DNA of 31,802 nucleotides, from IMG/VR virus record IMGVR_UViG_3300033067_000662, positions 1 to 31,802 of that record; one strand, 5' to 3'. Made by a program: the position numbers and the translations under genes. A model generated the notes under the pieces. That model had not been told where the DNA came from, ran no database searches, and worked only from the letters and a program-made list of their open reading frames with translations. This DNA comes from a virus. Taxonomy: Duplodnaviria > Caudoviricetes. Positions 6,801 through 31,802 of the stretch are shown here, one piece after another. The number at the start of each line of letters is the position of its first letter. Position 1 is the first letter of the stretch.

Positions 6801-9174
6801 TGATTTTCGCCCGATAGCTCTCAACAGCACCCCTCGAGTTGTCGAGTTTGGTGCGCCACATGTCGACAGCGTTGTTTGCCCGCTGCTGCTCAGTCTCGTA
6901 AGAGGAGAACGCTTGGACTGCGGTGTAGAGACCAAAGCCGACCGCGGCCAGGATGGGGAGCCATGCGGCGAAGGCACTTGCAAGAGCCCCGACAGCAGCC
7001 CGTGCGGTCACCAGAGAGGCTGTGAAAGTACCGCTCCCCATTGAGGCCACGGCGAACAGCGTCGGCAGCGACTTGAAGGTGACGACCATGTTCTGCAACG
7101 AAGCGACCAGAAGGTTGCTCGACATTGCCACCGTGCCGAAGGCCAGGTTTCTCTGCATGCTGGCCCCGAGGGCGACAGTCGCCCCCTGCGTCAGCATCAG
7201 CTGAGAAGGCAGCAGGCCGAACAGGCCGAACAGGCGGTTCACGGTGGTGTAGAGAGCGGCGCTCCCAACGGTAGCGGCCATGATCGTGCCGAACATCCGC
7301 AGCGAATCACCGCTCTCACGCAGGGTAACCAAGAAATCACTGGTGGACTTGGCCGCATCCCGCAGCAGATACAGCATCGGCTCGAAGGCTTCGTAGGCAA
7401 GGCTCGAGAGAACACCATTCAGGCGTTCCGACTGACCAGCCAGAGAACGCATCTGCGTTTCCTGTGCCTGCGAAGCAGCGACCGAGCCATAGAAGCTCTG
7501 CTGCATCGTCTCCATCAGCGGGAGGTTGTTGGACAGCGCGATGAAGGCCGCAGCCGAGCGGACTTCGAACGACTCGATGGCATCACCGGCGCTGAACCCT
7601 GCTTCGCGCAGGGTCTTCATGACGCCGTAGAGCCCCTTGGTCTTGAGGTCCACATCGTAGGTCGTCAGACCCAGCTTGTGCAGATTGCGCTCAAAGGTCT
7701 CGGAGGGCTTCTCCAGCGAGACCAGAATTTGGCGCATACCAGTGCCGAGCGTGGAGCCCGACCGGATACCGGCGTTGGCCATCGCGCCGAGACCGGCAGT
7801 CAGTTCTTCGAAGGAGACACCAGCGTCGTAGGCGGTGTTACCGGCATACTGCAGACCGAGGGTCAGCTTCTCGATGTCCAGCTTCGAGGAGTTCACCGCC
7901 TGCGTCAGGGTGTTTGCCACCGTCTGCATGCGGGACGCTTCGAGGTTGAAGATGCCGATGACCGAGGTCGCCACATCCACAGCACGGGTCAGCTCAGTCC
8001 CGGTCGCAGTGGCCAGTTGGGACACAGCGGAAACAGACTGACGGATCTCAGCGTTCGAGAAGCCCGCCTGGCCGAGAACGATAGCGGCCTGGGTGACTTC
8101 GTTCGCAGTGAACCGGCTGGCATCTGAAGCCGAGATGATGGTGCTTCTCAGGCTTTCCATCCCACCATCAGTGATCTTCACGATGGCCTGCAGATCCCGA
8201 AGGCTCTTGTCGAACTCAACACTGGCCGTCACGGCGTTCGAGAACGCACTGGTGACCTGATTGACCAGCATGTAGTTGGCCATGAGGTTGGCCTGAATGC
8301 GGAGCAAGCTGGCCCCGCCGTCGCCAAACAGACGCTGTTCCGACATCTCGCGCGAACGCTGAGCGTTCGCCCGATCAGTGAACGGCTGCATCGCGCGCTT
8401 TTCTTCAAGAGCGTTGGCCCGCTGCTGCTGCTTGATGCGGTCTTCAAGAGCACGACGCGCAGCCTCAGCGACCATGCGCTCACGGCGCTCACGTTCCCGA
8501 AGACCGCTCTCGATCTCCTGGTTCATGCGCCGCAGTGCGGCCATCGCTTCGGTCTGACGCTGCTTTTCACGCTGCCGCTGACCGGTGTCGATCTGAGCCG
8601 CCATTCGGTCCATAGCCGCAAGGCCATCCCGCTGGCGCTTGTCCGCTGCTTCCCGTGCCTTCGCCTCAGCGTTGATCTTTTCAATTCGCATCTGGAAGAT
8701 GCGAACCAGCTGTTCAGCCTTCCTCTGAGCCTGATCGTCCTGCCGCAGCTGGGCGTCCTTGGCTCGGAACTGCGCCGCACGGAGGTTGAGGCCCAGCTGC
8801 TCGAGGTCATTGATCTTCTTGACCCGCTTACCCTCTTCGTCGAGCATCTTGCTCTGCGACATCAGGAGCGCACCGCGCTCCTGATCGAGTTTCAGCAAAT
8901 CCTTGTAGGCCTGGATGCGCTTCGCGTCGGCCGAGATTGCAGTCTTCTGGACCTGGGTCTCTTGAGAAGCTGCAGCCCCCTGAGTGTAACCGGGGGTTTT
9001 GGCAATCTGCGCCGATTTCAGCGCCTTCAACTGCGTGTCGACAAGTTTCAGGCTGTTCAGAAGGGCATTGACCATGTCCTTCTGAGCGGCGAACTGATCG
9101 GTCAGCCTCTTCGCTGCGTCGACCGAGTTCTGAGTGACCAGAATGTCGACCTGTTGAACCTGCTTCTGTACCAT
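3874..9174 (-). CDS. Tail tape measure protein (1766 aa)
   Basis: Long helical protein with a TP901-type core (LGQAGFS..EI, GIRSGSTLGTGMRQIL), hydrophobic segments and a C-terminal AGGGEVTG...MPGEYVLR motif. Follows the chaperone genes. Confidence 0.96.
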   Translation of the reverse strand: MVQKQVQQVDILVTQNSVDAAKRLTDQFAAQKDMVNALLNSLKLVDTQLKALKSAQIAKTPGYTQGAAASQETQVQKTAISADAKRIQAYKDLLKLDQERGALLMSQSKMLDEEGKRVKKINDLEQLGLNLRAAQFRAKDAQLRQDDQAQRKAEQLVRIFQMRIEKINAEAKAREAADKRQRDGLAAMDRMAAQIDTGQRQREKQRQTEAMAALRRMNQEIESGLRERERRERMVAEAARRALEDRIKQQQRANALEEKRAMQPFTDRANAQRSREMSEQRLFGDGGASLLRIQANLMANYMLVNQVTSAFSNAVTASVEFDKSLRDLQAIVKITDGGMESLRSTIISASDASRFTANEVTQAAIVLGQAGFSNAEIRQSVSAVSQLATATGTELTRAVDVATSVIGIFNLEASRMQTVANTLTQAVNSSKLDIEKLTLGLQYAGNTAYDAGVSFEELTAGLGAMANAGIRSGSTLGTGMRQILVSLEKPSETFERNLHKLGLTTYDVDLKTKGLYGVMKTLREAGFSAGDAIESFEVRSAAAFIALSNNLPLMETMQQSFYGSVAASQAQETQMRSLAGQSERLNGVLSSLAYEAFEPMLYLLRDAAKSTSDFLVTLRESGDSLRMFGTIMAATVGSAALYTTVNRLFGLFGLLPSQLMLTQGATVALGASMQRNLAFGTVAMSSNLLVASLQNMVVTFKSLPTLFAVASMGSGTFTASLVTARAAVGALASAFAAWLPILAAVGFGLYTAVQAFSSYETEQQRANNAVDMWRTKLDNSRGAVESYRAKIKEVEDRIQSLSNRSKELTRNQDMLKSEIAQVRSQFAGMDSAIDGTETSVDSLIGKLQALWAQLQQQYILKIGVQISNLNGLMTALNLQGMDIGNRMSAAQFDGQSKDTELEAAYAAVVRSRGTDGFNDARAKFDALIATRQTELENKDYMSLSAPADTSGYQDPMGAPSSAPDPRVDRRTFLEESLRRATSLTGLVNEMGTLEANKLDVQSQMSQAEIEQMDATSRSTLAPVDAQRRTIEGQVRERLSMIEKLYAGDPIAKYKATEALAAQYLPMIQGVEAQINSRNGQDLTDNVAREQLGKWNEVKGMLTGASADAFQNYDKEQNSIEDSQARTSNVVYQGVLEKARRSNTVAEAGTNYAEAQRQAQMLLDQQNAAINTGLRKDDKGNLIDTTESRAARRDAQNMFDERLRDIERERQNTVEGIESGTGGQTAIARANFDRQIDDLRTSDTNIQNKFENGEVRRSDAAAGMASNMQSAEQLLTNISAERQRLEAKGSLSAEEQAQFRYLAGAENTLRDYVRTRGSEINSFLNDQEAGVDTAADRAFSANMSGLQNRVEETRIAARLKEIDEKEAKARYARIQSDAQTQLTGVQGRIKPIQAKLDANMPLTPAEERAYGQGVREEKRLRSFLSDNLSNVEGASGGSGGGGAGSADAGAGRDFNLMMDQFKTGMTDAGQDLKYNDATGPEAVARMEEIVAKAKEELEARRQLMATQKEGSAEYNRLKSEERTLLGFIREEEAGIRKIKEEQGLSQINLLNSVKAWAAENLNISKGLEEGFLGVLGSMKNGLSTLFSDLMSGTKSAKEAFRDFAMSVVESIQNVIAEMMAMYIMKKILGIFGMTMTGGGAEIVPITTMMGGAVRKAGGGEVTGNVARDSKLHMLMPGEYVLRKKAVDMIGLETLNAMNSMGNRAMATGGHVGVANQKKGPLGQTNVYVVAPEQQPVPGPSDIIAVINDDIARNGTTKKLIKSVAMGY

Positions 9175-9530
9175 TATCCGAAGACGCTCCTGAAGGCGAG
9201 TTCCAGTTCCGCCGCCGATTGTGGCTCAACAGGCTTGTCTTTTTTCTTCCCGCCGAACGCTTGGCTGACAATAGTCGCCATCGACTGGAAGTTTTGAACG
9301 ATCAAAGCTTGCTGATGCCCCAAGTATAGGCGCAGCTTCACTCTAATATCTTTGATCGAGCAGCGCCAGTAAATCTCGACGAGATCTGACGGGACGCTGT
9401 CAAACACTAGGCAGACAGCGTCCTCAAATGTCAGTTGCCCGAACCAGCCTGAGAAGGCATCAAGGCTTTGATCCGACCCTGATGACGTTCCTGCAGGGCC
9501 TTTGTCTTCTCCAGACCCTTCAAGAAAAAA
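9174..9530 (-). CDS. Tail assembly chaperone, frameshift extension (gpT part of gpGT)
   Basis: Open -1 frame from the slippery site to TAA 9174-9176, which overlaps the tape measure ATG (TAATG). Confidence 0.78.
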   Translation of the reverse strand, partial: FFLEGSGEDKGPAGTSSGSDQSLDAFSGWFGQLTFEDAVCLVFDSVPSDLVEIYWRCSIKDIRVKLRLYLGHQQALIVQNFQSMATIVSQAFGGKKKDKPVEPQSAAELELAFRSVFG

Positions 9531-9805
9531 TCCAGAACGTGGTCTCCAGCCCACGCGATCAGATCACCGGCCGCGTCGATGTCGAGGTCGAGCGTGTCGA
9601 GGTCGATCGCTTCCTTGATCTTGCCCTTTGCATCCCGATCAGAAAGCATCTCCACAAGGAATGCGTGACGCAGGATCGGATCGAAGTTCACCGATGCCGC
9701 TGCATCGACGTTACCAACTGCTCGGCAAAGAATGTTCAGAAGGCCGAAGCTCATCTTGATCTGCTTCTCAGATCCGTTGACGACGATGTCGAAAGTATCA
9801 GCCAT
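9431..9805 (-). CDS. Tail assembly chaperone (gpG-like)
   Basis: 124 aa between the major tail and tape measure genes. GGGAG RBS and an in-frame T-TTT-TTC heptamer. Confidence 0.85.
   Translation of the reverse strand: MADTFDIVVNGSEKQIKMSFGLLNILCRAVGNVDAAASVNFDPILRHAFLVEMLSDRDAKGKIKEAIDLDTLDLDIDAAGDLIAWAGDHVLDFFLKGLEKTKALQERHQGRIKALMPSQAGSGN
9524..9530 (-). promoter_or_regulatory. -1 ribosomal frameshift slippery heptamer T TTT TTC
   Basis: Minus strand CTG GAT TTT TTC TTG is an X XXY YYZ heptamer in the correct phase. The -1 frame reads TTT TTT CTT GAA into the T ORF. Confidence 0.8.
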
Positions 9806-12174: not shown

Positions 12175-12683
12175 CAGCTGACCTCAAGCAGATAGAGGCC
12201 GAGGGCTTCCTTCCGGTTCTGCACGATCCATGCACCGAGGCGATCGCCGACCTTCACATCGGAGCCCGTCAGGATGTTGTAGCGGTCGGTCTCGATGCCG
12301 ATGTTCTGGACGATGCCACCATATTCCACCACGACTGACAGGGATGGATCGAGGATCTGCATGCTGCTGTCGCGGGCCAGACCAGTTACCGGATCGACCT
12401 GATCAACCTTGCGGGACCAGCTGATCCGGTGGGTGATTTCGAAGCACTTGAACTGGAGCGTCTCCGAGTATGTTGCCTGCAAAGCTAGGAGGTAGCTGCC
12501 CAGGTCGCTCGAGACAACATCGCCTGTGTCAACCATAGCCAGTTTTGAAACAGTGATGGTTCTCCGCGGCCGGAAGTCTGTGGTCGAAGCCGACTGGCTG
12601 GGAAGTCCAAGTTCACCGAAGAACTTGTTTCCCCTTTGGGTCCGAAACAGAGTTTGAAATTGGCCGCGGAGTTGTCGCATCAT
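12174..12683 (-). CDS. Putative head closure (stopper) protein
   Basis: Beta-rich with DPVTG and DVKVGDRL. Follows the adaptor with TGATG coupling. Confidence 0.6.
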   Translation of the reverse strand: MMRQLRGQFQTLFRTQRGNKFFGELGLPSQSASTTDFRPRRTITVSKLAMVDTGDVVSSDLGSYLLALQATYSETLQFKCFEITHRISWSRKVDQVDPVTGLARDSSMQILDPSLSVVVEYGGIVQNIGIETDRYNILTGSDVKVGDRLGAWIVQNRKEALGLYLLEVS

Positions 12684-13384
12684 CAGGCTCCAGTGACAGG
12701 ATCGGTCGGGGTTGCCACGGAGAATACTTCGACCGTCGTCTCTTCAACAGAGATAACTGCAGTCAAAGCCTGTTGAAGTTTACGACGAAGCTCGAGCTCC
12801 ATCGCGGCGAAGTCCAACCCAGCGATCCGCGCGAACTGCGAGTCTTCACTGCGGGCTGAGACCGGGACGCGCAGCGGGAAGGAGGACGCAACGTCGATTG
12901 CAGCCTGCAGCGCAATGGCCTCATTCGCCTGCCGGTTCTTGAAGGTCGTGGCCGTCAGGTGGCTGGAGAAGTCCGTTCCGAAGCTGTCGAACAGCTGAAA
13001 GTAGGCCGACATGATGTCGATCTCTGCATCCGGCAGTTCGTTCTCGGTCAGGCCGGTCAAGCGCCGAACATCAGCTGCGGTCGCAGCGATCGGAGAGAAC
13101 GAGGTGATCTTGTAGGGTTGGACCAGCGTGTAGCTGCGGCCGTTGTAGATGAACGTCACCAGCACATAGCGGTTCTCATAGAGCGCACCGTTTGCCAGAG
13201 CGTTGTTCACAGCGGCGATCTGGATCGACACGGAAGTGGTCAGGCCGGTGAGGTTGACCGCGCTACCGACCGCAACGCCAGAGTGGTTGCGGAGCGTGTA
13301 GCTGGCCGACGTCGGGACGACGAACTCGCCATCCACCTTGAAGTCGAAGTTGATGGTGACGTTCTCACCAGCGAAGAACCACAT
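12683..13384 (-). CDS. Head-tail adaptor with an N-terminal Ig/BppU-like domain
   Basis: The C-terminal part begins ATAADVRRLTGLTENELPDAEID (gp6/gp15-like helical adaptor start). The first ~95 aa have an all-beta pattern. Confidence 0.68.
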   Translation of the reverse strand: MWFFAGENVTINFDFKVDGEFVVPTSASYTLRNHSGVAVGSAVNLTGLTTSVSIQIAAVNNALANGALYENRYVLVTFIYNGRSYTLVQPYKITSFSPIAATAADVRRLTGLTENELPDAEIDIMSAYFQLFDSFGTDFSSHLTATTFKNRQANEAIALQAAIDVASSFPLRVPVSARSEDSQFARIAGLDFAAMELELRRKLQQALTAVISVEETTVEVFSVATPTDPVTGA

Positions 13385-15411: not shown

Positions 15412-16920
15412 TCAACGCTTAGGGGTTTTGAACGCCGAGAGACCGGGACGTACCGCGGTGATCTTGGCATCTTCGACAGCAGAAGCAGCCACGCCGCCGA
15501 CCGGGATACCCGAAACGTCGATCGTCACTTCTTCCTTGTTCGGAGCCGCCGATGCTTCAAGCTCCGCGATGCGGGCTTTGGCAGCGTCGAGTTCCGCTTT
15601 CAGAGCAAAGGCCTCATCAGCCTGCTCGGAATTTTCCACGACGGGCTGTTCAACAACCTCGTCTTCAGCTTCGGCCACTTCGGCCTCAGCTTCGTCTTCG
15701 TCTTCGTCTTCCTCATCGGCGATGAGCAGCGACTTGATCTCGGCCAGTTCGGCCCGCAATGCGCTGATCTCGGCCTGAGGATCGAAGACCTGGGTGCCAT
15801 CGTTCGGCATCGGTGCTTCCTTCTCGTCAGATGCGGTGAAGAGAACGACCACTTCCGGCGGAAGACCGTCTGCGGCAATGCGGTCGTAGGTTTCACGGCC
15901 GAGCACTTGCTTGGTCCGACCGAGAATCTTGGGCTTGCTGGACGCGCCGCGCGAAACCAGCGAGAGCTCCATCCACTTGTCGAGACCGGCCAGCTTCACA
16001 TGAGCGCCGTCGTCGCCGACCGTGTGACCGTTGTCGCAAGTCATCGAGTAGAGGTGCTCGAACCCTGCGTCGGCAGAGAAGTAGTCAAAGCCACACTTCG
16101 AGCAAAGCAACTGCTTCGACTTGAGGCCAACCGACACTTCGTCGATGATGCCGAGGTTGATCTTCTCGACCAGTGAGGCCTCAGACGCCGGGATGTAGAA
16201 CATCGCGCGGAGTTCAGAGTCACCGTCAGCGCCAGAGATAACCTCTGCCTGGAACACTTTGCCGATCGGCAGTTCGCCGCCCTGCATGTGCAGGGTGTGC
16301 AGCGGGACTGACTCTTCGCCAGCGTTCAACGCAGCCGCCATCTGGCGCAGCGTGTCTTCAGTGATGCGGCCCTGATTGAAGATGGAACCCATCTTGTTCA
16401 GCGGACGGGTGTTGGCGACCGAAGCCTCAAAGACCACAATGTCCGAAGCCTCGACGGCGGTGCCCGTCACGCGTTCGATCTGCGCCAGCATTTCTTCGGT
16501 CACTTCGACCGTCTTGCTGAAACGCTTCTCGCGCTTGAAGTAATCCATCGACACGACCTGGTTCAACTCAGCTTCCGCCTTCTTTCCATCAGCACGGTTC
16601 ATCTGGGCGACCTTCTTACGCGCCCACGACTGACCAGCATCTCCACCCCACAAAGCCCACGCGATCCGGCCAGCACTCGGGAAGTTCGGGCCCTTGCTGA
16701 AGCCATCACCCTTCTTGTCGACTTCATGCCGAGAGAAGAACGAGTGCATGCGCTTCACCGTCGAGGGCGACAGCTTTTCCTTGCGTTGCAGCTGGGCGGC
16801 ACGAGCCACCCCGACAGCAGTGCCCCCACGCTTGAACTCCTTGCGCCAAGCAAGACCACGCTTAGCTTCCGCGGCCATCGCGTCAGTCGGCGTAAAGTCT
16901 ATGTTATCGTACTTGGCCAT
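15412..16920 (-). CDS. Prohead protease-scaffold fusion with an extra N-terminal basic domain
   Basis: LHTLH..GELPIGKVF, IDEVSVG, CSKCG..CDNGH and ELSLVSRGA motifs, plus an acidic coiled-coil C-terminus. Confidence 0.85.
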   Translation of the reverse strand: MAKYDNIDFTPTDAMAAEAKRGLAWRKEFKRGGTAVGVARAAQLQRKEKLSPSTVKRMHSFFSRHEVDKKGDGFSKGPNFPSAGRIAWALWGGDAGQSWARKKVAQMNRADGKKAEAELNQVVSMDYFKREKRFSKTVEVTEEMLAQIERVTGTAVEASDIVVFEASVANTRPLNKMGSIFNQGRITEDTLRQMAAALNAGEESVPLHTLHMQGGELPIGKVFQAEVISGADGDSELRAMFYIPASEASLVEKINLGIIDEVSVGLKSKQLLCSKCGFDYFSADAGFEHLYSMTCDNGHTVGDDGAHVKLAGLDKWMELSLVSRGASSKPKILGRTKQVLGRETYDRIAADGLPPEVVVLFTASDEKEAPMPNDGTQVFDPQAEISALRAELAEIKSLLIADEEDEDEDEAEAEVAEAEDEVVEQPVVENSEQADEAFALKAELDAAKARIAELEASAAPNKEEVTIDVSGIPVGGVAASAVEDAKITAVRPGLSAFKTPKR

Positions 16921-16985: not shown

Positions 16986-17315
16986 TTACGGCGCGTTGCC
17001 AGCAGATCGAACTACATGGATCTCGATGTAGTTCGAGTTGGGGAAGCTCTCGATCCCACCGCCTGTATAGGTGACGGAGAACTCACCATAGTAGGCACCG
17101 GGGACCACGGTGTTTGCAGCAACCCAGGGGTAGGCCACCTTGCCTTGGAGAGCGTCGATGATCGTGGCTTGGCCCTTGATCACGAGCGTGTCGTTGTCCC
17201 GGCTGCGCATAGAGAAGCTCACAGTCGCACCAGTCAGGACGACCGGCTGGCTGTCCGAGTCGAGCAAGGTCGCTTCCAGCAAAGGGAGAGTATTATACTG
17301 CTTGATGGTGAACAT
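16986..17315 (-). CDS. BppU N-terminal-like (DUF2479-like) Ig-fold protein, candidate fibre anchor
   Basis: FTIKQ..TLP.L...L.D....V.LTGATV.F.M...G.V.Y.W...T...G.Y.GEF.VTY..G..ESFP pattern. Confidence 0.75.
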   Translation of the reverse strand: MFTIKQYNTLPLLEATLLDSDSQPVVLTGATVSFSMRSRDNDTLVIKGQATIIDALQGKVAYPWVAANTVVPGAYYGEFSVTYTGGGIESFPNSNYIEIHVVRSAGNAP

Positions 17316-17330
17316 ATGGTCCTGCCGATT

Positions 17331-20300
17331 TCAGCTTTCCGGCAGAATAGCAGAATTGGGCCGACGTTCCAGAACAACTGCAAAATTCATTCGTGTGATG
17401 ATCGAAGGCTTGTTCTTCTGTTCCAGGACTTCAGCAGCGTTGATCTCGATGTTGTACGAGATCGCGTTCTTGCTGTCTTCACCAGAGGCGCGGCGCTGGG
17501 ACTTGATCACGTTCCCAGAGGTTTCGCCGATCAGGGAGATCGAACCAGTGGAGACAACCTTTACCGGAAGGCGACCAGTCGTTGCGCCCGTGATCGACAG
17601 GGAGCCAGAGAGGTCGCCTTCAACCTGGATGGCCCCTGCGGCCGCGCCGCCGAAGGTCATGCTCCCGGAGGTGCTGGCAACGATCTTCAACTGTCCGGTA
17701 GCTTCAGCGACAAAGTCGAGCGACGAACTGGCGGCACCACTGGCCTTGGCAGTGGCTACCGCACCACCATTCAGATCGAGGGCAGCGACGGCAACGCCGA
17801 CGATGTTGACGTCACCATCCGCGGTCGCCGGGAGACCCAGTTCGCCCGAGGCCTGACCAGTGTTCTTCACCGTGCCAGTGACCGCGCCGGTGAACGCGAG
17901 GATCGACTGGGCCTGGCCGGAAGTTGCGACAAAGCCCTCGGCCGAGCCATCCAGCGTGATCGAACCAGTGGTGGTCCCGGTGGCCTTTGCGGTCGCGGAG
18001 CTCGAGCCGGTGAGGTCAATGGTCGAGGCTGCAACGGCCGCAACAGTTACACGCGCCGCCGCGCCACCGTTCAGATCAAGCGCCGCGACCAGAGTTCCGG
18101 TGATCGGCAGATCAACATCAGCCGCACCACCCAGAGCGATCGAGCCTTCGGCCGAACCACGGATGACCTGGCTGGCCGTCGCTGCACCGGTCAGGTCGAT
18201 CGACCCGCTGGCAGACAGCTCGACCGGAACTTCACTCGAGGCAACGCCGGTCAGGTCGATCGAACCGTCGGCCGAACCCGCGATCAGGATCGTCGCTTCG
18301 GCAGCGCCGCTCAGGTCGACCGTCCCACTGGACGAGCCTGTGACTGCTGCCACACCCTCGACCGTGCCGCCCAGCACAATCGAACCTTGAGCGGAAGCCT
18401 GAACAATCAGGGTGGTGCTTGCGGAGCCAGTCAGATCCATCGACCCGCTGGCCGACAATTCGACCGGAACTTCGCTCGATGCAAACCCGATCAGGTCGAT
18501 CGTGCCTTCGGCCGATCCAGCAATCCGCACGATGCCGGTTGTATCACCGACCAGGTCAATCGCCCCACTGGACGATCCCGTGGCTGCTGCCACACCCTCG
18601 GTGATGCCGCTGAGATCAATCGAACCTTGAGCGGAAGCCTGAACAATCAGGCTGGCGATTGCGGAGCCGGTCAGGTCGATAAAGCCGGTTGCGTTCAACA
18701 GGACCGGAACTTCGCTCGAGGCAACGCCGGTCAGGTCGATCGAGCCCTCAGCCGAGCCTGCGATAAGCACCGTCGCTTCGGCAGCGCCGGTCAGTTCGAT
18801 CGTGGACGATGCTTCGGCGGTCGGGATGCTGGAGCTTGCAGCATGACCCGTCAGATCAAGGGTCGATTCCGCCTGCGCGGTGATCGGAACGTAGCCGACC
18901 GCGCCGCCGTTCAGGTCGAGCGCAGCGACCGCCGTGCCGATGACATTGATGTCCCCATCAGCAGTCGCCGGGAGCCCGAGTTCTCCAGAGGCAGCACCAC
19001 TGATCAGCACCTTCGCTTCGGTAGCGCCGGTGAGGTCGAGAGTCGTGGATGCCGACCCGAAGAGAACACTGTCCTGGACCGTACCTTCGGCCGCGCCGGT
19101 CAGGTCCAGAGATCCAGAGACTTCGCCAGAGGTGGTGACCAGGGTTTGGACGACGCCTTGCGACGAACCGGTGATATCGAAGTCGCCCGTGCCAGCCCCG
19201 TTGGTGACCAGGGTCATCGGGTAGCGAAGGATGACGATACCATCGCCGCCTTTGCCAGACTGGTAGTTGACACCGGCTACGCCAACACCACCAGAACCAC
19301 CACCCGAGTTAGGCGCAGCGGCCAGAGAGTTCGCTCCGTAGGCACCACGCGAACCGCCACCGGGACCATACCCATTGTTCGCTAGAGTTGCACCCCCGCC
19401 GCCACCACCACCGCCAAAGGGGATGGGAAGATCGTAGATGGCATAGGTCGCCGGAATGCCACCCGTGCCACCCGTTCCAGTAGTGCCAGTGGTCCCATTG
19501 CCACCAGCACCACCAGAACCACCACCGCCACCACCAAAACCTGAAGTGCCGTTACCGCTGCCGCCGCTATTACCCTGTCCTGAAGTTCCGGCAGCGCCAG
19601 CGTTGGTCGTTGCGCCACCGCCACCGCCACCGCCCGAACCACCAGTTGTAGCGGCAAGGTTGTTTGCGCCGCCGCCGCCGCCACGGACTGCCGTCAGGCC
19701 GTTGAAGGTGGTGCTGGTGCCTACGTTGCCGACAGCAGTGGCGGTGCCAGTTGTCGCTGCGCCGCCGACACCGATGACGATTGGATAAGACCCTGCGGGA
19801 AGGGTGATCGGGCTGGCGACGTTGTTGAGGACGCCCCCCGCACCGCCGCCGCCGCCATTGCCTGGGTTGATGCTTCGGCCACCAGACCCACCCCCACCGA
19901 CAAGGATGTATTCCAGGCCGGAAATGTCGCTTGCGGGGCTGAACGTGCCGTCGCTGACAAAGATATGGTAGCGGTAGGTGGTGCCGCCGATCGTTTCATC
20001 AAAGGTCGTGTTGACCGAAGGGACGAAGCTGGCCGGATAGCGGACCATGACGACGCCATCGCCGCCCTTGCCCGTCGAAGCTGTGGTGGAGAACGTCGCC
20101 CCCGAACCGCCGCCGAGGCCGTTGGTGCCTTGCGTGGAACTGTTAGAGCCTGCCGTGCCGCCCCCGGTGCCACCCGTGCCATAGCTGAGAGTGCCCGAGT
20201 TACGACGAGACGCGCCCCCGCCACCCGCGTAGGTGACAAACGCTCCTGAGAACGAATAGGGCATGCCATTCGCGCCGTTGAGCGTGGTCGGAGCAGCCGA

Positions 20301-20825
20301 TGCACCGCCGCCACCGCCGCCGACCTGCGTTGTCGAGCTGGTGTAGGTTCCGGCTGCGCCCGCAAAGCCCTGTCCAGATGTTCCGGTCCCAGCGACACGT
20401 GGCCCCGTGGTGCTGCTACCAGCGCCGCCACCGCCAGACCCACCGTTCTTGCCTGCGCTCCCGCCACCGCCACCGCCACCGCCACCTACAGCAGTCAAGC
20501 CGTTGAAGGTGGAGTCGCTGCCGCTGTTGCCTGCGCCGGTCGATCCAGCGCCGCCAACCCCGACTACAATGGGATAGGAACCGGCGGTCAGGCTGATGGC
20601 CGAACCGCCCGTGTTGGTCAGAAGACCGCCAGCGCCGCCACCGCCTGCCGATGCGCCCGAATTGTTGGTCCTGCCGCCCGAACCGCCGCCAGCGACTAGG
20701 AAGTACTCGACGTCAGCCCCACCTTCAGTAACCGTGAGGGTATCATCAGCCGTAAATCTATGGAGCCGCCAGAGTTTTCCGGCGTCCCACACATAGCTGA
20801 CTGTACCCCCGGTCGCCTTGGTCAT
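17331..20825 (-). CDS. 1164-aa fibre protein: two glycine-rich domains plus ~28 x 20-aa repeats
   Basis: Two domains, each running H.F.....EY.LV.GGGSGG to GKGGDG.V..RYP, then IDLTG-type repeats. Confidence 0.88.
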   Translation of the reverse strand: MTKATGGTVSYVWDAGKLWRLHRFTADDTLTVTEGGADVEYFLVAGGGSGGRTNNSGASAGGGGAGGLLTNTGGSAISLTAGSYPIVVGVGGAGSTGAGNSGSDSTFNGLTAVGGGGGGGGGSAGKNGGSGGGGAGSSTTGPRVAGTGTSGQGFAGAAGTYTSSTTQVGGGGGGASAAPTTLNGANGMPYSFSGAFVTYAGGGGASRRNSGTLSYGTGGTGGGTAGSNSSTQGTNGLGGGSGATFSTTASTGKGGDGVVMVRYPASFVPSVNTTFDETIGGTTYRYHIFVSDGTFSPASDISGLEYILVGGGGSGGRSINPGNGGGGGAGGVLNNVASPITLPAGSYPIVIGVGGAATTGTATAVGNVGTSTTFNGLTAVRGGGGGANNLAATTGGSGGGGGGGATTNAGAAGTSGQGNSGGSGNGTSGFGGGGGGSGGAGGNGTTGTTGTGGTGGIPATYAIYDLPIPFGGGGGGGGATLANNGYGPGGGSRGAYGANSLAAAPNSGGGSGGVGVAGVNYQSGKGGDGIVILRYPMTLVTNGAGTGDFDITGSSQGVVQTLVTTSGEVSGSLDLTGAAEGTVQDSVLFGSASTTLDLTGATEAKVLISGAASGELGLPATADGDINVIGTAVAALDLNGGAVGYVPITAQAESTLDLTGHAASSSIPTAEASSTIELTGAAEATVLIAGSAEGSIDLTGVASSEVPVLLNATGFIDLTGSAIASLIVQASAQGSIDLSGITEGVAAATGSSSGAIDLVGDTTGIVRIAGSAEGTIDLIGFASSEVPVELSASGSMDLTGSASTTLIVQASAQGSIVLGGTVEGVAAVTGSSSGTVDLSGAAEATILIAGSADGSIDLTGVASSEVPVELSASGSIDLTGAATASQVIRGSAEGSIALGGAADVDLPITGTLVAALDLNGGAAARVTVAAVAASTIDLTGSSSATAKATGTTTGSITLDGSAEGFVATSGQAQSILAFTGAVTGTVKNTGQASGELGLPATADGDVNIVGVAVAALDLNGGAVATAKASGAASSSLDFVAEATGQLKIVASTSGSMTFGGAAAGAIQVEGDLSGSLSITGATTGRLPVKVVSTGSISLIGETSGNVIKSQRRASGEDSKNAISYNIEINAAEVLEQKNKPSIITRMNFAVVLERRPNSAILPES
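17503..19185 (-). repeat. Degenerate 60-bp (20-aa) coding tandem repeat, ~28 units, with a 240-bp super-period
   Basis: CCGGTCAGGTCGAT-like words recur every 60 nt. ASSEVPV recurs every 80 aa (three times) and IVQASAQGS twice. Confidence 0.92.
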
Positions 20826-21025
20826 TCGATGACAACCTCATCAGGCGGCTGGAAGCCGAGGGTTTCGGTCCAGGTCCAGCCGAGCGCCGGATACTGGCTC
20901 ATGTCGAGAACCTCTACCCAGTTGCCGGGGTAGAGGTCGGGGTTCTGTTCGATGCGTTCTGCGGTGACGCGGCGCACGTCCGAAACCACGCCGTCAGTCA
21001 CCTGAGCGAAGTAACCGGTCGACAT
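20822..21025 (-). CDS. Small partner of the glycine-rich protein (67 aa)
   Basis: YFAQVTDGVV...YPALGWTW...FQPP pattern, ATGA-coupled to the 1164-aa gene. Confidence 0.78.
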   Translation of the reverse strand: MSTGYFAQVTDGVVSDVRRVTAERIEQNPDLYPGNWVEVLDMSQYPALGWTWTETLGFQPPDEVVIE

Positions 21026-21035
21026 GGTTCAGGAC

Positions 21036-21437
21036 TCACGCGCCGCCAGCGGAGATCGTGAACGAGGTGATGACCACCTGTTGGCCCGAGGCGATCGAGG
21101 TATTGTCGAGGGTCATGTCGCCGCCCCCGCCGGTCGCGGTGATCGAGCCCTGGATGTGGGTCGTGCCAGCACCCTTGATGCGGAAGTGACCAGCGGTCCC
21201 AGCGGCATCTGCCGACAGATCCTGCCAGGTGCCCGACAGCGACTTCGAGCCACCAGAGGCCGCAGCCAGCCAGTCGGACGGCAGGACGAGGGTCGCCAGA
21301 ACGGTGCCCGAGTCGGCCGCAGCAGCGTTGGCCGGAACCGAGCCCGAGCGGATCTCGAGGGTGGGAGCAGTCCCGATGGTCGTCTCGATTGCGTCGAGAG
21401 CGGCGTTGCGGGAAGCGGTAGAGAACTGGAATGCCAT
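21036..21437 (-). CDS. Small beta-rich virion structural protein, candidate filament subunit (133 aa)
   Basis: RNAALDAI...LEIRSGSVP...GTAGHFRI...GDMTLDNTSIASGQQVVITSFTI. Strong TAAGGA RBS suggests high expression. Confidence 0.75.
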   Translation of the reverse strand: MAFQFSTASRNAALDAIETTIGTAPTLEIRSGSVPANAAAADSGTVLATLVLPSDWLAAASGGSKSLSGTWQDLSADAAGTAGHFRIKGAGTTHIQGSITATGGGGDMTLDNTSIASGQQVVITSFTISAGGA

Positions 21438-21448
21438 GAGGGTTGTCC

Positions 21449-22915
21449 TTACTTCACGGAGTTGCTTTTGGCGGCTTCGCTGCCCTGGGGTGCGAGAGAC
21501 CGGCCGAGAGGGTCAGAGTTGGGGGAGACGTCCTGCGCGTTACCTACATCCGCTGCGCTGCCATCATTGAAGCCAGAAGCAGACAGTTCGGGAGCGTCGT
21601 CGGGCCGAATGCGACCGTACATTTCCAGATGATATTCATCATCAGTGATGATTCCCAAAGAGAGGTCAGACTTCAGCCGAGATGAACGGATCATCAGCTG
21701 CGGTTCGAGTTCGAGGGCGGGGCGCAGTTCAACAGGCTTGAAGCGGCAAGTGACGTGCGACTGCTCGTGACCGTGCAGGCGGATCAGCATGGTCATCATC
21801 TGAGACCAGACTTCAGCCAGCGGCTCATTGATTTCCTCGGCATTCATCGAGAAGATCCGAGCTTCGACCGACGCCGTGTTCACACCGCTCTCACCCCGGC
21901 CGAGGACCGTCGCCACGCTGCGCAGCGCGGCCTGGTTCTGGGCATTCAGGGTGCTGATGATCGAGTCGATGTTCATCGCATTCGCGGGCTTCGAATCGTT
22001 CAGCATCTTCGTCTCGACCGAGTCGGTGTGGACGAAGGCTTGATCAGGCCGCAGATTGACCACCGTGCTGCGGATCAGGCCGATCTGGGTGTTGATGTAC
22101 TGGGCCAGCTTTTCGGCATCCTGCTTCACCGAAGCGGGAGCGTTCTTGCGGATCACTTCCTCAAGCACAGTGATCTCGAGCCGGGGGTAGCCGGTCAGCT
22201 GCATGATCCGATAGAGGTCGTTGATCACTTGCTGGCGGGCGGCGACCGTGTTGATGGCCGAGACGAAGGGCGAGAAGGTGTAGATCGAGGTCGGGTCGCG
22301 CCGGTAGAACGACACGAAGAAGGTCGGGATGTTCAGGTCGATGTAATCCGACGAGTTCGCCGGTTTCTGGCGCGGCGTGAAATTGCTCGGGGTCTTTTCG
22401 AACCATTCAACGCTGGCCATGTCGACATGGCGGATCTCGGTCGGCATCATTGCCTTGTCGACGACGAGTTCCTCGCCCAAAGCCCCGCGCAGCAGGACCA
22501 TGTAGCGCATGTTCTCGCAGATCTGACGGACGTTCGGACGCCAGTCGAACCCCTTCGAGTAATCGAAGCGGGTGGTCAGAGCCAACAGCAGCGAGTTCAG
22601 CGTCTTCTGGGCCTCGCGGTCGATCAGCCCGTTCACATCCCTCGCGACGAAGACCGGATCGGTGTTCGCCACGGTCAGGAAGGCGTTCACCGCCGCCGAC
22701 ACATCGGGGTCATGGACGAACAGCGACTTCATCAGCACTCGACTGTCGTCGGTCGAGCGCGACGTGAAGACGTCGGTCAGGTGATCCCGATACGCCGGGA
22801 GCGAGAGCGTGTTCTCGGTCGAGGTCGGGTTGTACGTATTCGTGAAAGCAATACCGGCGGGATTGCTCCGCTTCGGTAGAAGTACCTTCAGAACTGAAGC
22901 GAAGTTGGTCGCCAT
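21449..22915 (-). CDS. Portal protein
   Basis: 488 aa directly after the large terminase with TGATG coupling. Size and position are typical. Confidence 0.88.
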   Translation of the reverse strand: MATNFASVLKVLLPKRSNPAGIAFTNTYNPTSTENTLSLPAYRDHLTDVFTSRSTDDSRVLMKSLFVHDPDVSAAVNAFLTVANTDPVFVARDVNGLIDREAQKTLNSLLLALTTRFDYSKGFDWRPNVRQICENMRYMVLLRGALGEELVVDKAMMPTEIRHVDMASVEWFEKTPSNFTPRQKPANSSDYIDLNIPTFFVSFYRRDPTSIYTFSPFVSAINTVAARQQVINDLYRIMQLTGYPRLEITVLEEVIRKNAPASVKQDAEKLAQYINTQIGLIRSTVVNLRPDQAFVHTDSVETKMLNDSKPANAMNIDSIISTLNAQNQAALRSVATVLGRGESGVNTASVEARIFSMNAEEINEPLAEVWSQMMTMLIRLHGHEQSHVTCRFKPVELRPALELEPQLMIRSSRLKSDLSLGIITDDEYHLEMYGRIRPDDAPELSASGFNDGSAADVGNAQDVSPNSDPLGRSLAPQGSEAAKSNSVK

Positions 22916-28082: not shown

Positions 28083-28146
28083 GGGGTCACGCCTTCGTCG
28101 ATCGGGATTGGTATGAGACCCGAGCCAAGTGGCTCACGATGGAAGT

Positions 28147-28175
28147 AAAAAAGAGGGGCTCCTAGCGGAGCCCCT
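28147..28175. terminator. Intrinsic terminator hairpin after the primase
   Basis: Stem AGGGGCTCC/GGAGCCCCT. The good U-tract is on the minus strand and the plus-strand tail is weaker. Confidence 0.75.
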
Positions 28176-28248
28176 TGAGTAGTTTTGGCAGGATCCATCA
28201 AGGAACGGATGTCTATGTCTAAGACAAATACTCCCTTGTTGCAAGCTC

Positions 28249-28303
28249 CCAACTCCCTACCGACTCCCTACCAGCTCCCTCCCAACTCCCTCCCAACTCC
28301 CTA
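28249..28303. repeat. Five tandem 11-bp repeats CCRRCTCCCTM
   Basis: ccaactcccta ccgactcccta ccagctccctc ccaactccctc ccaactcccta. Confidence 0.93.
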
Positions 28304-28619
28304 CCAGATCAACACCAGTATTGCCTTGGCGAAGCATAGGCACTGGGGGAGCGGTTCACTTTGGTTCACCTGAATTTCCAAAAATTTCACACGCGGAGAC
28401 TTGGCATGATTGCGCCCGGATCGCTGGCAACGAGGTGAAAAATGGTGGACACCTTGGGCACCGGACCCGAGACGCCGCGCCTTGCGCCGCGTTAGCGGGG
28501 GGGAACCGAACCGAACCGCCGCCCTATCCTTGCCTGACTGGCAAGGCGGGGACCGGGGAAGGTATGAGCGAAACAAGGAAAAGCCCCAAATTGGGGGAAA
28601 CGTGAAAAGGACCAAAGAC

Positions 28620-29390
28620 ATGGAATTGACCGCTTACGCTATGACTCAATTCGCTATCGGCAACGCCGCGCGTTTCAACGCGCTTGTCGGCTTTGCCGTC
28701 GCCAATATCGCGGCATGGCAAGACTGGACGGAAACGGGCCGCAAGGTCAGCATGGCGGAAAGCGCCGCCACCCTGAAAAGCGCGCTTATCACGGCGCGGG
28801 TGCCGGAAACGTCGCGTGACCGTTTCCTGTCCACCGTTTCCGGCATGACAACGCGCCTTAACGTGGACGCTAAGGCGGCGCTGGCGGAAGCGCGCGGCGT
28901 TTATATGGCGGCGGAAACGCCGGAAGCGGCGCGCGCGGAAAGCGCCGTGGAAGCCGTCGCGCGTTTCCTGCGCGACATTGGCGCAGACTCTCTTGGCTAT
29001 CTTGAGGCCTATGCCAAAGGCGGCAAGGCGGCGCTTGCCGGGGCGCGCGCCAAGACGGAAGCGCAAGCGGAAGCGCTGGCAAAGCGCGCCGTCATGACGG
29101 AAGCGGAAGCGGCGGAAGCGGCGGAAGCCGACAAGGCGGAAGCGGAAGCGGCGGAAGCCGACAAGACGCCGCGCGCCAAAGCGGCAAAGCAAGCGGCGGC
29201 AATGCTGGCGGCGCTGGCAAAGCATGGCGACAATATGACCGACGCCGAATTGACGGCGCTTGCAAGCGCCGTCGCGGAAACGCTGGCAAAGCGCCGCGCG
29301 CTTGAAACGGAAGCGCGCATCTTGCGCGACAAGGCGCAAGCGGCGCGTGACAAGGCGGAAGCGGCGGCGGAAGAACGCCGCGCCGCCTAA
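28620..29390 (+). CDS. Alanine-rich helical protein of unknown function (256 aa)
   Basis: AAAGGA RBS before ATG 28620. Strongly biased codons (GCG, GAA, CAA) and an internal AEAAEADK duplication. Confidence 0.85.
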   Translation: MELTAYAMTQFAIGNAARFNALVGFAVANIAAWQDWTETGRKVSMAESAATLKSALITARVPETSRDRFLSTVSGMTTRLNVDAKAALAEARGVYMAAETPEAARAESAVEAVARFLRDIGADSLGYLEAYAKGGKAALAGARAKTEAQAEALAKRAVMTEAEAAEAAEADKAEAEAAEADKTPRAKAAKQAAAMLAALAKHGDNMTDAELTALASAVAETLAKRRALETEARILRDKAQAARDKAEAAAEERRAA

Positions 29391-29420
29391 GCGCCGCCCC
29401 ATATCGCTGGCCTACCTGAC

Positions 29421-29582
29421 GCCGCGCGGCATTGCCGCGCGGCGTTTCCGCTTGCCGCAGCGCAGCGCGGCATCGCCGCAGCGCAGCGCGGCAATGCCGC
29501 ATCGCGGCATGGCCGGATCTGATTGCCGCAGCGCAGCGCGGCATCGCCGCAGCGCAGCGCGGCATCGCCGCAGCGCGGCATC
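29421..29582. repeat. Array of GCCGC-N(0-8)-GCGGC palindromic units (21-bp unit GCCGCAGCGCAGCGCGGCATC)
   Basis: Full or near-full units at 29454, 29475, 29525 and 29546. Shorter units at 29421, 29434, 29496 and 29567. Confidence 0.93.
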
Positions 29583-29772
29583 GCACCTGCCCACGCAATA
29601 TATCCGCGCGATGCGGCCGCGCTACGTCACGTGATGTAGGTGCGCGCATGTAGGTTATATACGTGCGCCTAGGCTGGCACTCTAAAGATAAAAGCAAGTA
29701 AACGCGCGAAGGGTTTTGGACAACTTTTCGTATGTGTTTTCTCGTTTCAATTCGAAATCAAGGATTCCAAAA

Positions 29773-29973
29773 ATGACCCCTGAAGAACAAGCTCAGGCCT
29801 GGGCTTACCGTATCTTGCACCAGACCAACCGGTTGCAGGCAGAGATCCTCAAGCGGTCTGTGCCCGTGCCGCTGGCCCCGCGTCAGGCTCCTGTGCAGAC
29901 CAAGCCTGGCACCCGCCGTGTGCCCCATACCCCGAAGGGTAGCGGGTCTCGCCGCGTTTGGAGTGTTTCCTGA
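29773..29973 (+). CDS. Hypothetical basic protein (66 aa)
   Basis: AAGGA RBS then MTPEEQAQAWAYRILH. Confidence 0.7.
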   Translation: MTPEEQAQAWAYRILHQTNRLQAEILKRSVPVPLAPRQAPVQTKPGTRRVPHTPKGSGSRRVWSVS

Positions 29974-30125
29974 TGTGCATCCTGATCGCCAATGGTGAGA
30001 CCCTTGCGACGGGTCTCAGCCACACCGCCGCAATGCGTGAAGCGCGGATCGCGTCGAGGTTGCTCGGCACGACCGTCACGATTTTCAATCTCAAGACCAG
30101 GGAGTCGGTCGAATGGAAAAACTGA
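29973..30125 (+). CDS. Hypothetical protein (50 aa, below the ORF-track cutoff)
   Basis: MCILIANGETLATGLSHTAAMREARIASRLLGTTVTIFNLKTRESVEWKN. TGATG-coupled to the previous gene and fills the gap to the next one. Confidence 0.65.
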   Translation: MCILIANGETLATGLSHTAAMREARIASRLLGTTVTIFNLKTRESVEWKN

Positions 30126-30295
30126 TCGAGATGACCATGGATGGGCGACTGTCCCTCATTTGGGCGTTCCTTGCCTGCTGCCTGATTGTGGTGGTTTGGG
30201 AAGCCTGGCCGTGGGTGGTCGCTCACTGCCGGGACCGTAACCGGAGGGTAGCGTTGGCGCGCCGGTATGGCAAGAACGCAAAGTTCTATCGCTGA
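30113..30295 (+). CDS. Small single-pass membrane protein (60 aa)
   Basis: GGGAG RBS, hydrophobic LSLIWAFLACCLIVVVWEAWPWVV and a basic tail. Confidence 0.7.
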   Translation: MEKLIEMTMDGRLSLIWAFLACCLIVVVWEAWPWVVAHCRDRNRRVALARRYGKNAKFYR

Positions 30296-30354
30296 GGAGT
30301 TATCGTATAAGTCCGCGGGGGGCGCAGATTTGGCCAGAGGGTGTCCTCCGCGGC

Positions 30355-30532
30355 AGCATTATGTATGCTACTTTTTCTGCTAAGATACTGGTATATATAG
30401 ATTCTTTTCTTTCTTCAAAAGTGGCTTACAAGAAAAGAAGAAAAGAAGTAATAGAAAGAAAGAAGAGTTATAGGATAGTAAATATAAAAGTTAGAGATTT
30501 GAAAATCCGAAATACGTGTAGTCTACTTTTTT
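30355..30532. other. AT-rich non-coding tract (candidate origin or regulatory region)
   Basis: Most AT-rich stretch of the window, with pyrimidine then purine runs and no credible ORF. Confidence 0.6.
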
Positions 30533-30878
30533 GAGTGACGTGTTTTCCGGGGCCTCCGAGTTATACGATAGCTCCGCCCCCACAGCCCTGAGCCTATGCT
30601 ACGCCAATACCCTCTGGCCAACCGGCGAGGAAGAGATTCGGTCTCTTCTGGATGGGATGAGTCGTGCGTTGCATGTGCTGAGTGCTGTCCAAACAAGGAG
30701 AAAACGACATGACCACGACCGGGGCCTGCATCCCTCGAAAACTGCAACGTCGGCAAGCCACGCCATAGAGAGCGCCCACCAGATCCGGGGTCTAGGAGTG
30801 ATCTGCGCGATCATTGAGATCACAAAACCCAGTGCGTGAAGCTGGGTTCACTCAACCTTTAATTTGGGAAACCAAGAC

Positions 30879-31277
30879 ATGACACCTTCCGACATCTACA
30901 AGAACTGCCTCGCCATCGAGGCGCTCATGACCTCGCGCGGCTTCATGCGCCCAGAGGTCGCCTTCTTCGTCAACTTCCTCGGCGGGAAGCCCTATAGCCT
31001 CAAGGTCGAGATGAGGACCACGCAGGACTACAATTCGGCGATCTCCATCTATCCAGATGTCCAGTCCGAGGACGAGATCTTCAAGCTGTTCGAGCATGCC
31101 CGCGAATGGGTCGCCGCGCAGAAGACCCCCAAGGAAATCCGGCAGGAGCAGTTCCTCGCGTCCCTGGGCCGCGTGATCGACGAGGGTCGGTCCTTGGGCC
31201 TCGACGTCGAGTTCATGAACCCGCTGGTCGAGTCCATGCGCAAGCTGTCCGAGAACGTCCTGGAGTATCACGCATGA
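30879..31277 (+). CDS. Hypothetical protein (132 aa)
   Basis: Phage-like codon usage, ATGA-coupled to the next gene. Confidence 0.85.
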   Translation: MTPSDIYKNCLAIEALMTSRGFMRPEVAFFVNFLGGKPYSLKVEMRTTQDYNSAISIYPDVQSEDEIFKLFEHAREWVAAQKTPKEIRQEQFLASLGRVIDEGRSLGLDVEFMNPLVESMRKLSENVLEYHA

Positions 31278-31732
31278 ACCTCGAAAATCTGAACAAGGTC
31301 ATCGACTGGCTGCACCGGGGTGCGCCCGAGATGATCTTCTCGATGAAGTATTCGCTTCGCACCATCGACGAGACCGACGTCGCTGACAAAGATTACACTT
31401 GGGACGGCTACTACGCGCTGGCCCTCTCGCAGCAGGCCAAGGTGGACACCGACTCCTGTGGCTCGGTCTGCTGCATCGCCGGTGCGGCCGCACAGTTCGA
31501 CGGTGCCAGGCCCAACGAATACGACGAGTGGGGCCCCATTCAGAAGCGGGCCCTCCAGTATTTTGGGATCAATCCCGAGGACTACGACGACCTCCCGTGG
31601 ATGCTGCCGGTCTTCGACCCCGACCTGGCCCCCGACAACTGCGGTCCCAGGACCGCAGCAGCCGCTCTCAAGCGGTGGGCCGAGCAACCCGTCTTCGACA
31701 TCAACTTCAACCCCTGGAGCCACAAGGAATGA
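31274..31732 (+). CDS. Hypothetical protein with a CGSVCCIAG motif (152 aa)
   Basis: True start is probably ATG 31274 (MNLENLNK), given the ATGA overlap. Confidence 0.85.
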   Translation: MNLENLNKVIDWLHRGAPEMIFSMKYSLRTIDETDVADKDYTWDGYYALALSQQAKVDTDSCGSVCCIAGAAAQFDGARPNEYDEWGPIQKRALQYFGINPEDYDDLPWMLPVFDPDLAPDNCGPRTAAAALKRWAEQPVFDINFNPWSHKE

Positions 31733-31802
31733 ACAAGGAACTCCTGATCCAGACCATCAACTGGCTCGAGGCTGGCGCACCAGAGCGCCAGTTCAACATG
31801 AG
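31729..31802 (+). CDS. Start of a probable paralogue of the preceding gene (truncated by the window)
   Basis: MNKELLIQTINWLEAGAPERQFNM versus MNLENLNKVIDWLHRGAPEMIFSM. ATGA overlap. Confidence 0.75.
   Translation, partial: MNKELLIQTINWLEAGAPERQFNM

Follow-up and report, generated by a model that had tools for sequence, protein, structure and literature searches.

A four-gene cassette between portal and protease

The window analysed here is the whole of IMG/VR record IMGVR_UViG_3300033067_000662, 31,802 nucleotides of a tailed phage genome with an estimated completeness of 39%, and our subject is a cassette of four genes that lies in it between the portal gene and a putative protease gene and that we read as encoding a candidate chain-like fibre. 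The phage is a siphophage whose kin include Achromobacter phage JWF, at 62% in the capsid, and Caulobacter phage Seuss, at 47%; the minus strand carries its genes for terminase, portal, capsid, tail tube, tape measure and tail tip, and likewise the four open reading frames (ORFs) of the cassette, present at the positions given in an earlier note made from the DNA alone. From the portal side they encode a 133-residue protein, here called the bead (21036..21437), a 67-residue protein (20822..21025), a 1164-residue protein (17331..20825) whose repeat region we call the rope, and a 109-residue protein with an immunoglobulin (Ig)-like domain of the BppU_N type, the candidate anchor (16986..17315). 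The intergenic gaps from portal to protease are 11, 10, -4, 15 and 65 nt. The Shine-Dalgarno site of the bead gene (21446..21451, minus strand) overlaps the portal stop codon, and its sequence, TAAGGA, is a motif found also upstream of the major capsid gene. These features of the earlier note were all borne out: tightly packed genes, a strong ribosome-binding site, a pair of Gly-rich domains, 28 repeats of 20 residues and a BppU-like domain.

Bead and rope

A single-sequence search of the PDB with the bead, a member of phrog_3758 (E 4e-30), returned nothing significant, and the profile of its 142-sequence family alone succeeded, matching chain 44NX_B at E 1.2e-12 over profile positions 1-133, which is full length, and chain 9RKV_A at E 7e-7. 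Judged by entry code and length, the 147-residue chain of 44NX fits gp40 of phage A1002; the 141-residue chain of 9RKV, a tail-fibre entry of phage 7-7-1, is taken to be the homodimeric garland protein gp014. The structure model (predicted local distance difference test score, pLDDT, 93.7) has a helix at residues 7-21 and seven strands, and its fold matches (VIA) include 9RKV_A (Z 14.1, template-modelling (TM) score 0.76), the Sf14 neck chain 9C39_K (Z 10.5) and chain 8JOU_a of fibre I of phage GP4 (Z 7.4); it also matches the connector chains of phage Bas63 (9MT4, TM 0.65). Profile and model together indicate that the bead is an N-terminal helix with a β-sandwich, homologous to A1002 gp40 and to the 7-7-1 garland gp014. 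The family is very large, with at least 7,949 clusters at 90% identity and at least 2,469 at 50%. Some of its members (P0123, P0136, P0175, P0135, P0184, P0237 and P0266) carry the bead domain as a tandem pair in one chain, a ready-made dimer, or fused to large enzyme-like or lectin-like domains.

The rope occupies residues 543-1109 of the 1164-residue protein (17499..19199, minus strand) and consists of 28 units, 24 in register (630-1109) and four less regular ones (543-629). When residues 546-1125 are autocorrelated, the peaks fall at lags 20, 40, 60 and 80 (1.13-1.56); the half-period lags 10, 30, 50 and 70 score 0.64-0.70, and every other lag is negative. Of 24 units, all have a large hydrophobic residue at positions 7 and 9 of the repeat, 18 have one at position 17 and 17 have one at position 19; odd positions hold large hydrophobic residues with Gly and Ala, and even positions polar ones. 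The rope grew partly via block duplication: pairs of units at a distance of 80 residues agree at 46-53 of 60 nt, where the median is 27. A period of 20 with a half-period of 10 accords with a dimer on every repeat, each of its monomers on one half, and the period compares with 20.5 residues per dimer in A1002, where rope residues 243-468 carry 11 dimers through β-sheet augmentation (PMC13730344; this and the other papers cited by PMC number or DOI were available in part, and statements drawn from them refer to those parts). By analogy, the bead is expected to form dimers, one on each rope repeat.

The question of whether bead and rope belong together was addressed with a screen of 80 viral and 35 genome loci plus those of the phage's own clade, excluding loci with less than 4 kb downstream, duplicates and three named phages; loci are given below by their L numbers. 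A detector restricted to period 20 found ropes in 36 of 74 loci and missed those of period 21 and 23, and a 19-23 detector was used for the final counts. An ORF with small-residue repeats of that period lies within 5 kb downstream of the bead in 61 of the 74 loci, upstream in 4/72 and in 1/90 control windows; after dereplication, the rope is just downstream of the bead in 49 of 60 loci. The pair also occurs in the named phages Pan4, Seuss, Charlie and Vibrio phage 501E54-1. This co-occurrence, with the homology to A1002 gp40 and the matching period, supports the earlier proposal that many copies of the 133-residue subunit line the repeat region.

On the bead tree, ropes of period 20, 21 or 23 fall into groups, requiring 4 changes as opposed to 16 with shuffled labels (L067 was relabelled as period 20, L133 and L155 were dropped as borderline, and near-identical beads were removed, reducing 54 rows to 48, one of them a 60-residue fragment), and this clustering is joint inheritance. 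The bead columns that best separate the rope periods include positions 3, 5, 9 and 13, the dimer-interface region in Bas63. Estimated repeat numbers range from 4 to 34 with a median of 10 (n=55), and the window is among the four longest.

A Gly-rich tip and its putative partner

The N-terminal half of the rope protein (residues 1-540) is 32% Gly, with 16 runs of at least three Gly, and PF21722 (Gly_rich_2) matches it in two stretches (E 4e-37). These delimit two putative adhesin domains on the minus strand, domain 1 at residues ~14-272 (20010..20786; also phrog_2295) and domain 2 at residues ~285-538 (19212..19973; best stretch 294-535), the latter 47% identical to the former. Searches of the PDB with the protein and with a 10-sequence profile of the Gly-rich domains gave no match, the gp38 adhesin included; a single-sequence PDB search with the whole 1164-residue protein gave nothing significant, and when the Gly-rich half was run by tblastn against named phages there were no matches, the low-complexity filter being the probable cause. 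Adhesins of the T-even gp38 type have polyglycine-II sandwich domains with Gly runs, and because of this analogy we infer that the Gly-rich tip is an adhesin.

The 67-residue protein (phrog_14370) is, from its gene context, the putative partner or chaperone of this tip, a partner role having been suggested before; its gene is directly upstream of a double Gly-rich domain in 3/3 related loci (L017/L165, L166 and L167). Among named Atlas clusters, the one nearest to it is a family for tail-fibre assembly (0.80), which we treat as a lead only. In L166 the 67-residue gene and double Gly-rich domain are paired with another bead subfamily, in L167 there is no bead or rope in the tiled part beside them, and other ropes bear LamG, peptidase or unnamed domains; the tip is therefore a swappable module.

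A candidate anchor

The 109-residue protein matches BppU_N (PF10651) at E 6.6e-6, above the Pfam cut-off, and its gene context suggests a collar or adaptor role. BppU upper-baseplate proteins link Dit to receptor-binding proteins. In relatives, a BppU_N-type gene abuts the end of the rope or is fused to it. Across the 60 dereplicated loci, the gene behind the rope is a homologue of GP4 gp77 in 15 and of the BppU_N type in 17, with no locus having both (hypergeometric 0.003, the loci not being independent). The gp77 homologues behind ropes belong to PF23148 and match 8JOU_D (E 2e-17), and the 109-residue protein has no PF23148 match. Given that it fills the gp77 slot and has no profile similarity to gp77, it is a functional stand-in for gp77 and not a gp77; gene context in this way supports the view, put forward in the earlier note, that the BppU-like protein anchors the C-terminus of the rope protein.

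That C-terminus (residues ~1118-1164; 17334..17474, minus strand) contains five repeats of 9-10 residues, with Asn at 1120, 1129, 1138, 1147 and 1157, and its lag-9 autocorrelation has z 3.0 (p 0.047). Across 37 dereplicated rope ends, 11 loci with fused or unrelated ends being excluded, the mean z at lag 9 is 2.6, and the short repeats are mostly of 9 residues; five are present in the window and in L076, and ~2 to 8, counted by eye, in other relatives. PDB entry 8JOU has three gp77 chains, as would be expected if a single rope reaches across several adaptor subunits, and each short C-terminal repeat may bind one Ig subunit.

Homologues of the 109-residue protein occur in head, neck and tail modules. 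Those in haloarchaeal and roseobacter viruses are found in HRTV-25 (L168:2131-7645), CRP-6 (L170:5727-7318) and HGTV-1 (L169:3250-3603); ahead of the homologue, HRTV-25 has a 146-residue gene product that the bead profile does not match and a LamG protein whose C-terminal half is rope-like, and CRP-6 has an acidic repeat protein.

A probable rope-and-bead fibre and its site on the virion

Taken as a whole, the cassette very probably builds an accessory rope-and-bead, or chain-like, fibre, long and flexible, and the mechanism proposed in the earlier note is in the main upheld. The 1164-residue protein would be a single extended chain in which each 20-residue repeat provides two 10-residue β segments, one in the open groove of each half of a single bead dimer, to complete the bead β-sandwiches, so that ~28 dimers (56 beads) would coat one rope. 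Repeat number would set the length of the fibre, ~75 nm at the mean rise in A1002 and less than ~190 nm if fully stretched. The N-terminal Gly-rich domains with the 67-residue protein would form a distal host-binding tip, and the five short C-terminal repeats would add strands to several copies of the 109-residue Ig domain, by which the rope would be held at the virion's head end, the likeliest arrangement being a collar on the head-tail adaptor.

Several observations weigh against this interpretation. The fold matches to GP4 and to Bas63/Sf14 are moderate (TM 0.52-0.65), and profiles of the 20-type and 21-type ropes matched no solved rope in the PDB, low-complexity repeats being poor queries. 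Kin share labels, and the bead tree is as such no proof of co-evolution. No rope was detected in 11 of the 60 bead loci, part of these misses being T4-like loci with short divergent candidates, and no anchor was detected by the gp77 and BppU_N profiles in 28 of the 60; beads also occur in baseplate modules with no adjoining repeat protein among the genes read (CKB-S1 and the 7-7-1 garland). The 109-residue profile aligned to a gp77-like alignment with a probability of 0.5% (hhalign) and to the N-terminal domain of a 233-residue putative adaptor with 1.9%, and found nothing significant in the PDB, likewise as a single sequence. Many cassettes, finally, lie among tail or lysis genes, and gene position therefore does not fix the site of the fibre.

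As to that site, the neck is the probable one. Outside the cassette, the 233-residue protein (12683..13384, minus strand) is the likely docking site; its Atlas look-alikes are Mu gp36 (0.91), a cluster with 10% BppU_N (0.93) and gp6-type adaptors, and its label as a head-tail adaptor is putative since its profile had no match in the PDB. In two distinct clade relatives (L111/L112 and L114) a rope is fused in frame to a full-length homologue of this protein (E ~1e-36). Further fusions join a rope to a gp6-like connector (L146) and gp77 to gp6-like or DUF4054 domains (L040 and L034), and in the T4-like L015 the cassette is directly before the head-tail adaptor Ad2; the flanking-gene annotation covered 102 of 138 picked ORFs in 47 loci. 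Because ropes and anchors are fused to head-tail adaptors, in the phage's own clade included, a neck anchor is favoured over a capsid vertex, and of the earlier suggestion of docking on capsid or neck the neck half gains from these fusions and the capsid half is the less supported.

Some of these loci have features of their own. The rope-adaptor fusions (L111:13670-16003, L112:4984-7317 and L114:15276-17984) keep the adaptor's own Shine-Dalgarno site and ATG; if two products arise from such a gene, ropes could sit on only some subunits of the ring. T4-like loci (L015:4410-6823, L071 and L077-L080) have a bead, a short aromatic-rich rope candidate and a BppU-type anchor directly before the neck genes, the position of the whisker gene in T4. 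In L018:6381-7199, a rope is followed in the same ORF by a domain which by eye resembles a head-closure protein and has no Pfam match.

The same fibre could alternatively stand on the five-fold vertices of the capsid, its five C-terminal repeats gripping a pentamer of the 109-residue protein and one long filament rising from each vertex. We regard this as unlikely. In its favour, the anchor repeats number exactly five in the window and L076, cassettes directly follow the portal gene in seven loci with six other portal families (L021, L024, L030, L043, L073, L136 and L137), 109-residue homologues are in the head modules of HRTV-25, HGTV-1 and CRP-6, the RcGTA head spike is a precedent for one chain on a pentamer (PMC7296036), and 7-7-1 has one fibre per vertex, made of proteins stated to be unknown (PMC12796354). 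However, relatives vary in repeat number, L034, though it has five repeats, carries a gp77 fused to a DUF4054 domain, every fusion found involves neck proteins, and the RcGTA spike has a jelly-roll base and another motif, of 2 residues. A more general version of the idea, to which we give a similarly low probability, is that the rope holds two rulers, the 28 long repeats setting length and the count of short repeats setting how many Ig subunits each rope grips and hence the number of fibres per ring (on 12-mer collars with 2, 3, 4 or 6 repeats, and with 5 on either a 15-mer collar or a five-fold vertex); in its boldest form, every capsid vertex would bear a pentamer of the 109-residue protein from which a filament of 56 subunits with a Gly-rich adhesin extends. 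If true, the vertex form would be the first set of genes assigned to long head filaments like those of phiCbK and 7-7-1. The link to these filaments drawn in the earlier note gained no support, as the 7-7-1 homologue of the bead is the baseplate garland, and nothing was seen that bears on flagella. In tblastn with three beads and the anchor, neither phiCbK nor 7-7-1 was among the matches listed, a search not sensitive enough for the purpose, because the bead profile did find the 7-7-1 garland.

A fibre hanging from the tail tip or baseplate, where the BppU-like domain would act as in Gram-positive baseplates, is suggested by the Pfam name BppU_N, by some dozen related cassettes that adjoin tail-fibre or lysis genes, with the same in Seuss, Pan4 and mycobacteriophage Charlie, and by the A1002 rope belonging to a nozzle; yet the cassette of the window is in the head module, ~15 kb from the tail-tip genes, and clade relatives fuse the rope to the adaptor, and we hold a tail site to be improbable, any other site no less so. 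Least probable of all is a reading without a rope, in which the repeats fold by themselves as a β-solenoid stalk under the Gly-rich tip and the 133-residue protein is a separate garland-like decoration. Beads that occur without a nearby repeat protein would suit it, and the weak top matches of the rope profile in the PDB are autotransporter passengers, although not significant (E 0.49 and 1.1); against it, hydrophobic and small residues keep to odd positions through an even period of 20, as expected of a single unbroken strand face, repeat proteins go with beads and their period goes with the bead clade, and the nearest solved sequence relative of the bead binds a rope.

An accessory insertion and its surroundings

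Portal and protease are neighbours in Achromobacter phage JWF, and among 36 clade portal loci they are adjacent in 27, separated by this cassette in one, by other genes in five and by several tiny ORFs in two, with one locus cut off. Since the cassette is at this site in just one other clade contig (L076, which is L086), L087 lacks it in its portal-protease gap despite a portal 86% identical to that of the window, and unrelated genes sit in the gap of five others, the cassette is an accessory insertion at a tolerant site. The third-position G+C content is 0.64 in the tip half of the 1164-residue gene, 0.69 in the rope half and 0.71-0.82 in core genes. Contigs from Logan run X1, possibly the window's own sample, bridge the portal to Gly-rich domain 1 (1 difference) and the rope C-terminus to the protease (0 differences), and no repeat-number variants of the rope were found among the joints listed; no RNA holder was among those listed. 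The gap is an insertion hotspot, with other accessory genes in L090:8737-9606, L092:3822-6894, L120:11502-13521, L094:6958-7332 and L119:7337-7879 that look by eye fibre-like, esterase-like, membrane and spanin-like.

The protease label of 15412-16920 reflects position and the look of the sequence; there was no Pfam match and the best PHROG is of unknown function. This putative protease has an extra N-terminal domain of ~110 residues (phrog_2859, E 1e-27) and is 502 residues long as compared with 437-441 in L086/L087. A role of the cassette as tail tape measure was ruled out, the phage having its own tape measure gene at 3874-9174; ahead of that gene, 9174-9805 has two overlapping ORFs typical of a frameshifted tail chaperone pair. 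Three ORFs checked in 28100-31802 had no Pfam or PHROG match and look like shadow frames.

Comparison with known systems

That repeats template a fibre of subunits is not a new principle: rope-and-bead fibres have been solved in GP4, A1002 and Bas63, and a 2026 preprint on phage P2 describes rope fibre architectures in diverse phages (10.64898/2026.09.14.750843). They are so far known from a handful of cryo-electron microscopy structures and are short, with 2-11 dimers. The bead family is very large, and the cassette, with exchangeable tips, rope lengths and anchors, is found in siphophages, T4-like phages and mycobacteriophages, so recognising it allows many "hypothetical" genes to be annotated. 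A bead homologue is in 42 mycobacteriophage records, and in Charlie gp22-gp24 (L003:6408-8357) the bead adjoins a repeat-bearing protein whose Gly-rich domain is C-terminal, the opposite order to that in the window. In the literature covered we found no account of a BppU-anchored rope, of anchor repeats or of a repeat-deletion test; the papers on GP4 (J Mol Biol 2023) and VP1 (Structure 2024), with their supplements, fall outside that coverage and may describe rope repeats. The word "rope" is absent from a mycobacteriophage baseplate preprint (PMC13252515) and from the HFTV1 paper (PMC12494034).

Some resemblances are more distant. The neck fibre of cyanophage A-1(L) (gp82-gp81-gp80; PMC10966104) is likewise a bead chain, of ~100 nm, encoded in a separate three-gene operon and with a distal binding module, but its trimers join head to tail, no rope is described in the text available, and no A-1(L) neck-fibre protein was matched in PDB searches with the window proteins; it is an unrelated look-alike. 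The RcGTA head spike has a pentamer base and a single fibre, so that one chain can bind a pentamer (PMC7296036, PMC10218006), but its base is of the jelly-roll type bound through an N-terminal 2-residue Leu repeat, whereas the anchor repeats of the window are C-terminal with a period of 9, and at most the principle is shared. The garland gp014 of Agrobacterium phage 7-7-1 (9RKV; PMC12796354) is the best fold match of the bead and is homodimeric, but it surrounds the baseplate, has no rope in the available description and is not the capsid fibre of 7-7-1.

The closest parallels are the solved ropes. In the collar-whiskers of Bas63/Sf14 (9MT4, 9C39; PMC12609058) the whisker dimers are beads on a string, each with an N-terminal helix and with a sandwich that is incomplete by itself and made whole by the rope; the bead fold is shared, and the rope is N-terminal to an Ig collar at the neck, the order seen in the window. 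Their ropes, however, hold two dimers and are extensions of each of 12 collar subunits, with no tip domain in the description available. Fibre I of the Ralstonia podophage GP4 (8JOU; PMC13730344, PMC12609058) likewise combines a bead (gp80 dimers), a separate rope protein that interlocks with an Ig-like collar, and a small Ig adaptor (gp77); the bead folds match, and close relatives of the window bead use true gp77 homologues, but the GP4 rope holds five dimers only and the window has a BppU_N anchor with no detectable similarity to gp77. The chain-like fibre of the Pseudomonas podophage A1002 (nozzle-rope gp39, beads gp40/gp41; 44NX; PMC13730344) has in gp40 a full-length homologue of the bead, ~20 rope residues per dimer and an Ig-like domain at the rope's distal end, which we count as a likeness. 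It differs in its 11 dimers of two bead types, as against ~28 of one type, and in a rope fused to a podophage nozzle, as against a separate protein in a siphophage with two Gly-rich domains as its tip. The window thus stands apart from the solved fibres in its number of sites, 28 where the others have no more than 11, in the pair of Gly-rich domains at the tip, in the BppU-type anchor and in the five anchor repeats, and with its four genes and 28 sites it is a clean system for asking whether a rope acts as a second tape measure. Most likely, the cassette is a long, tip-bearing, BppU-anchored variant of the rope-and-bead fibres of GP4, A1002 and Bas63.

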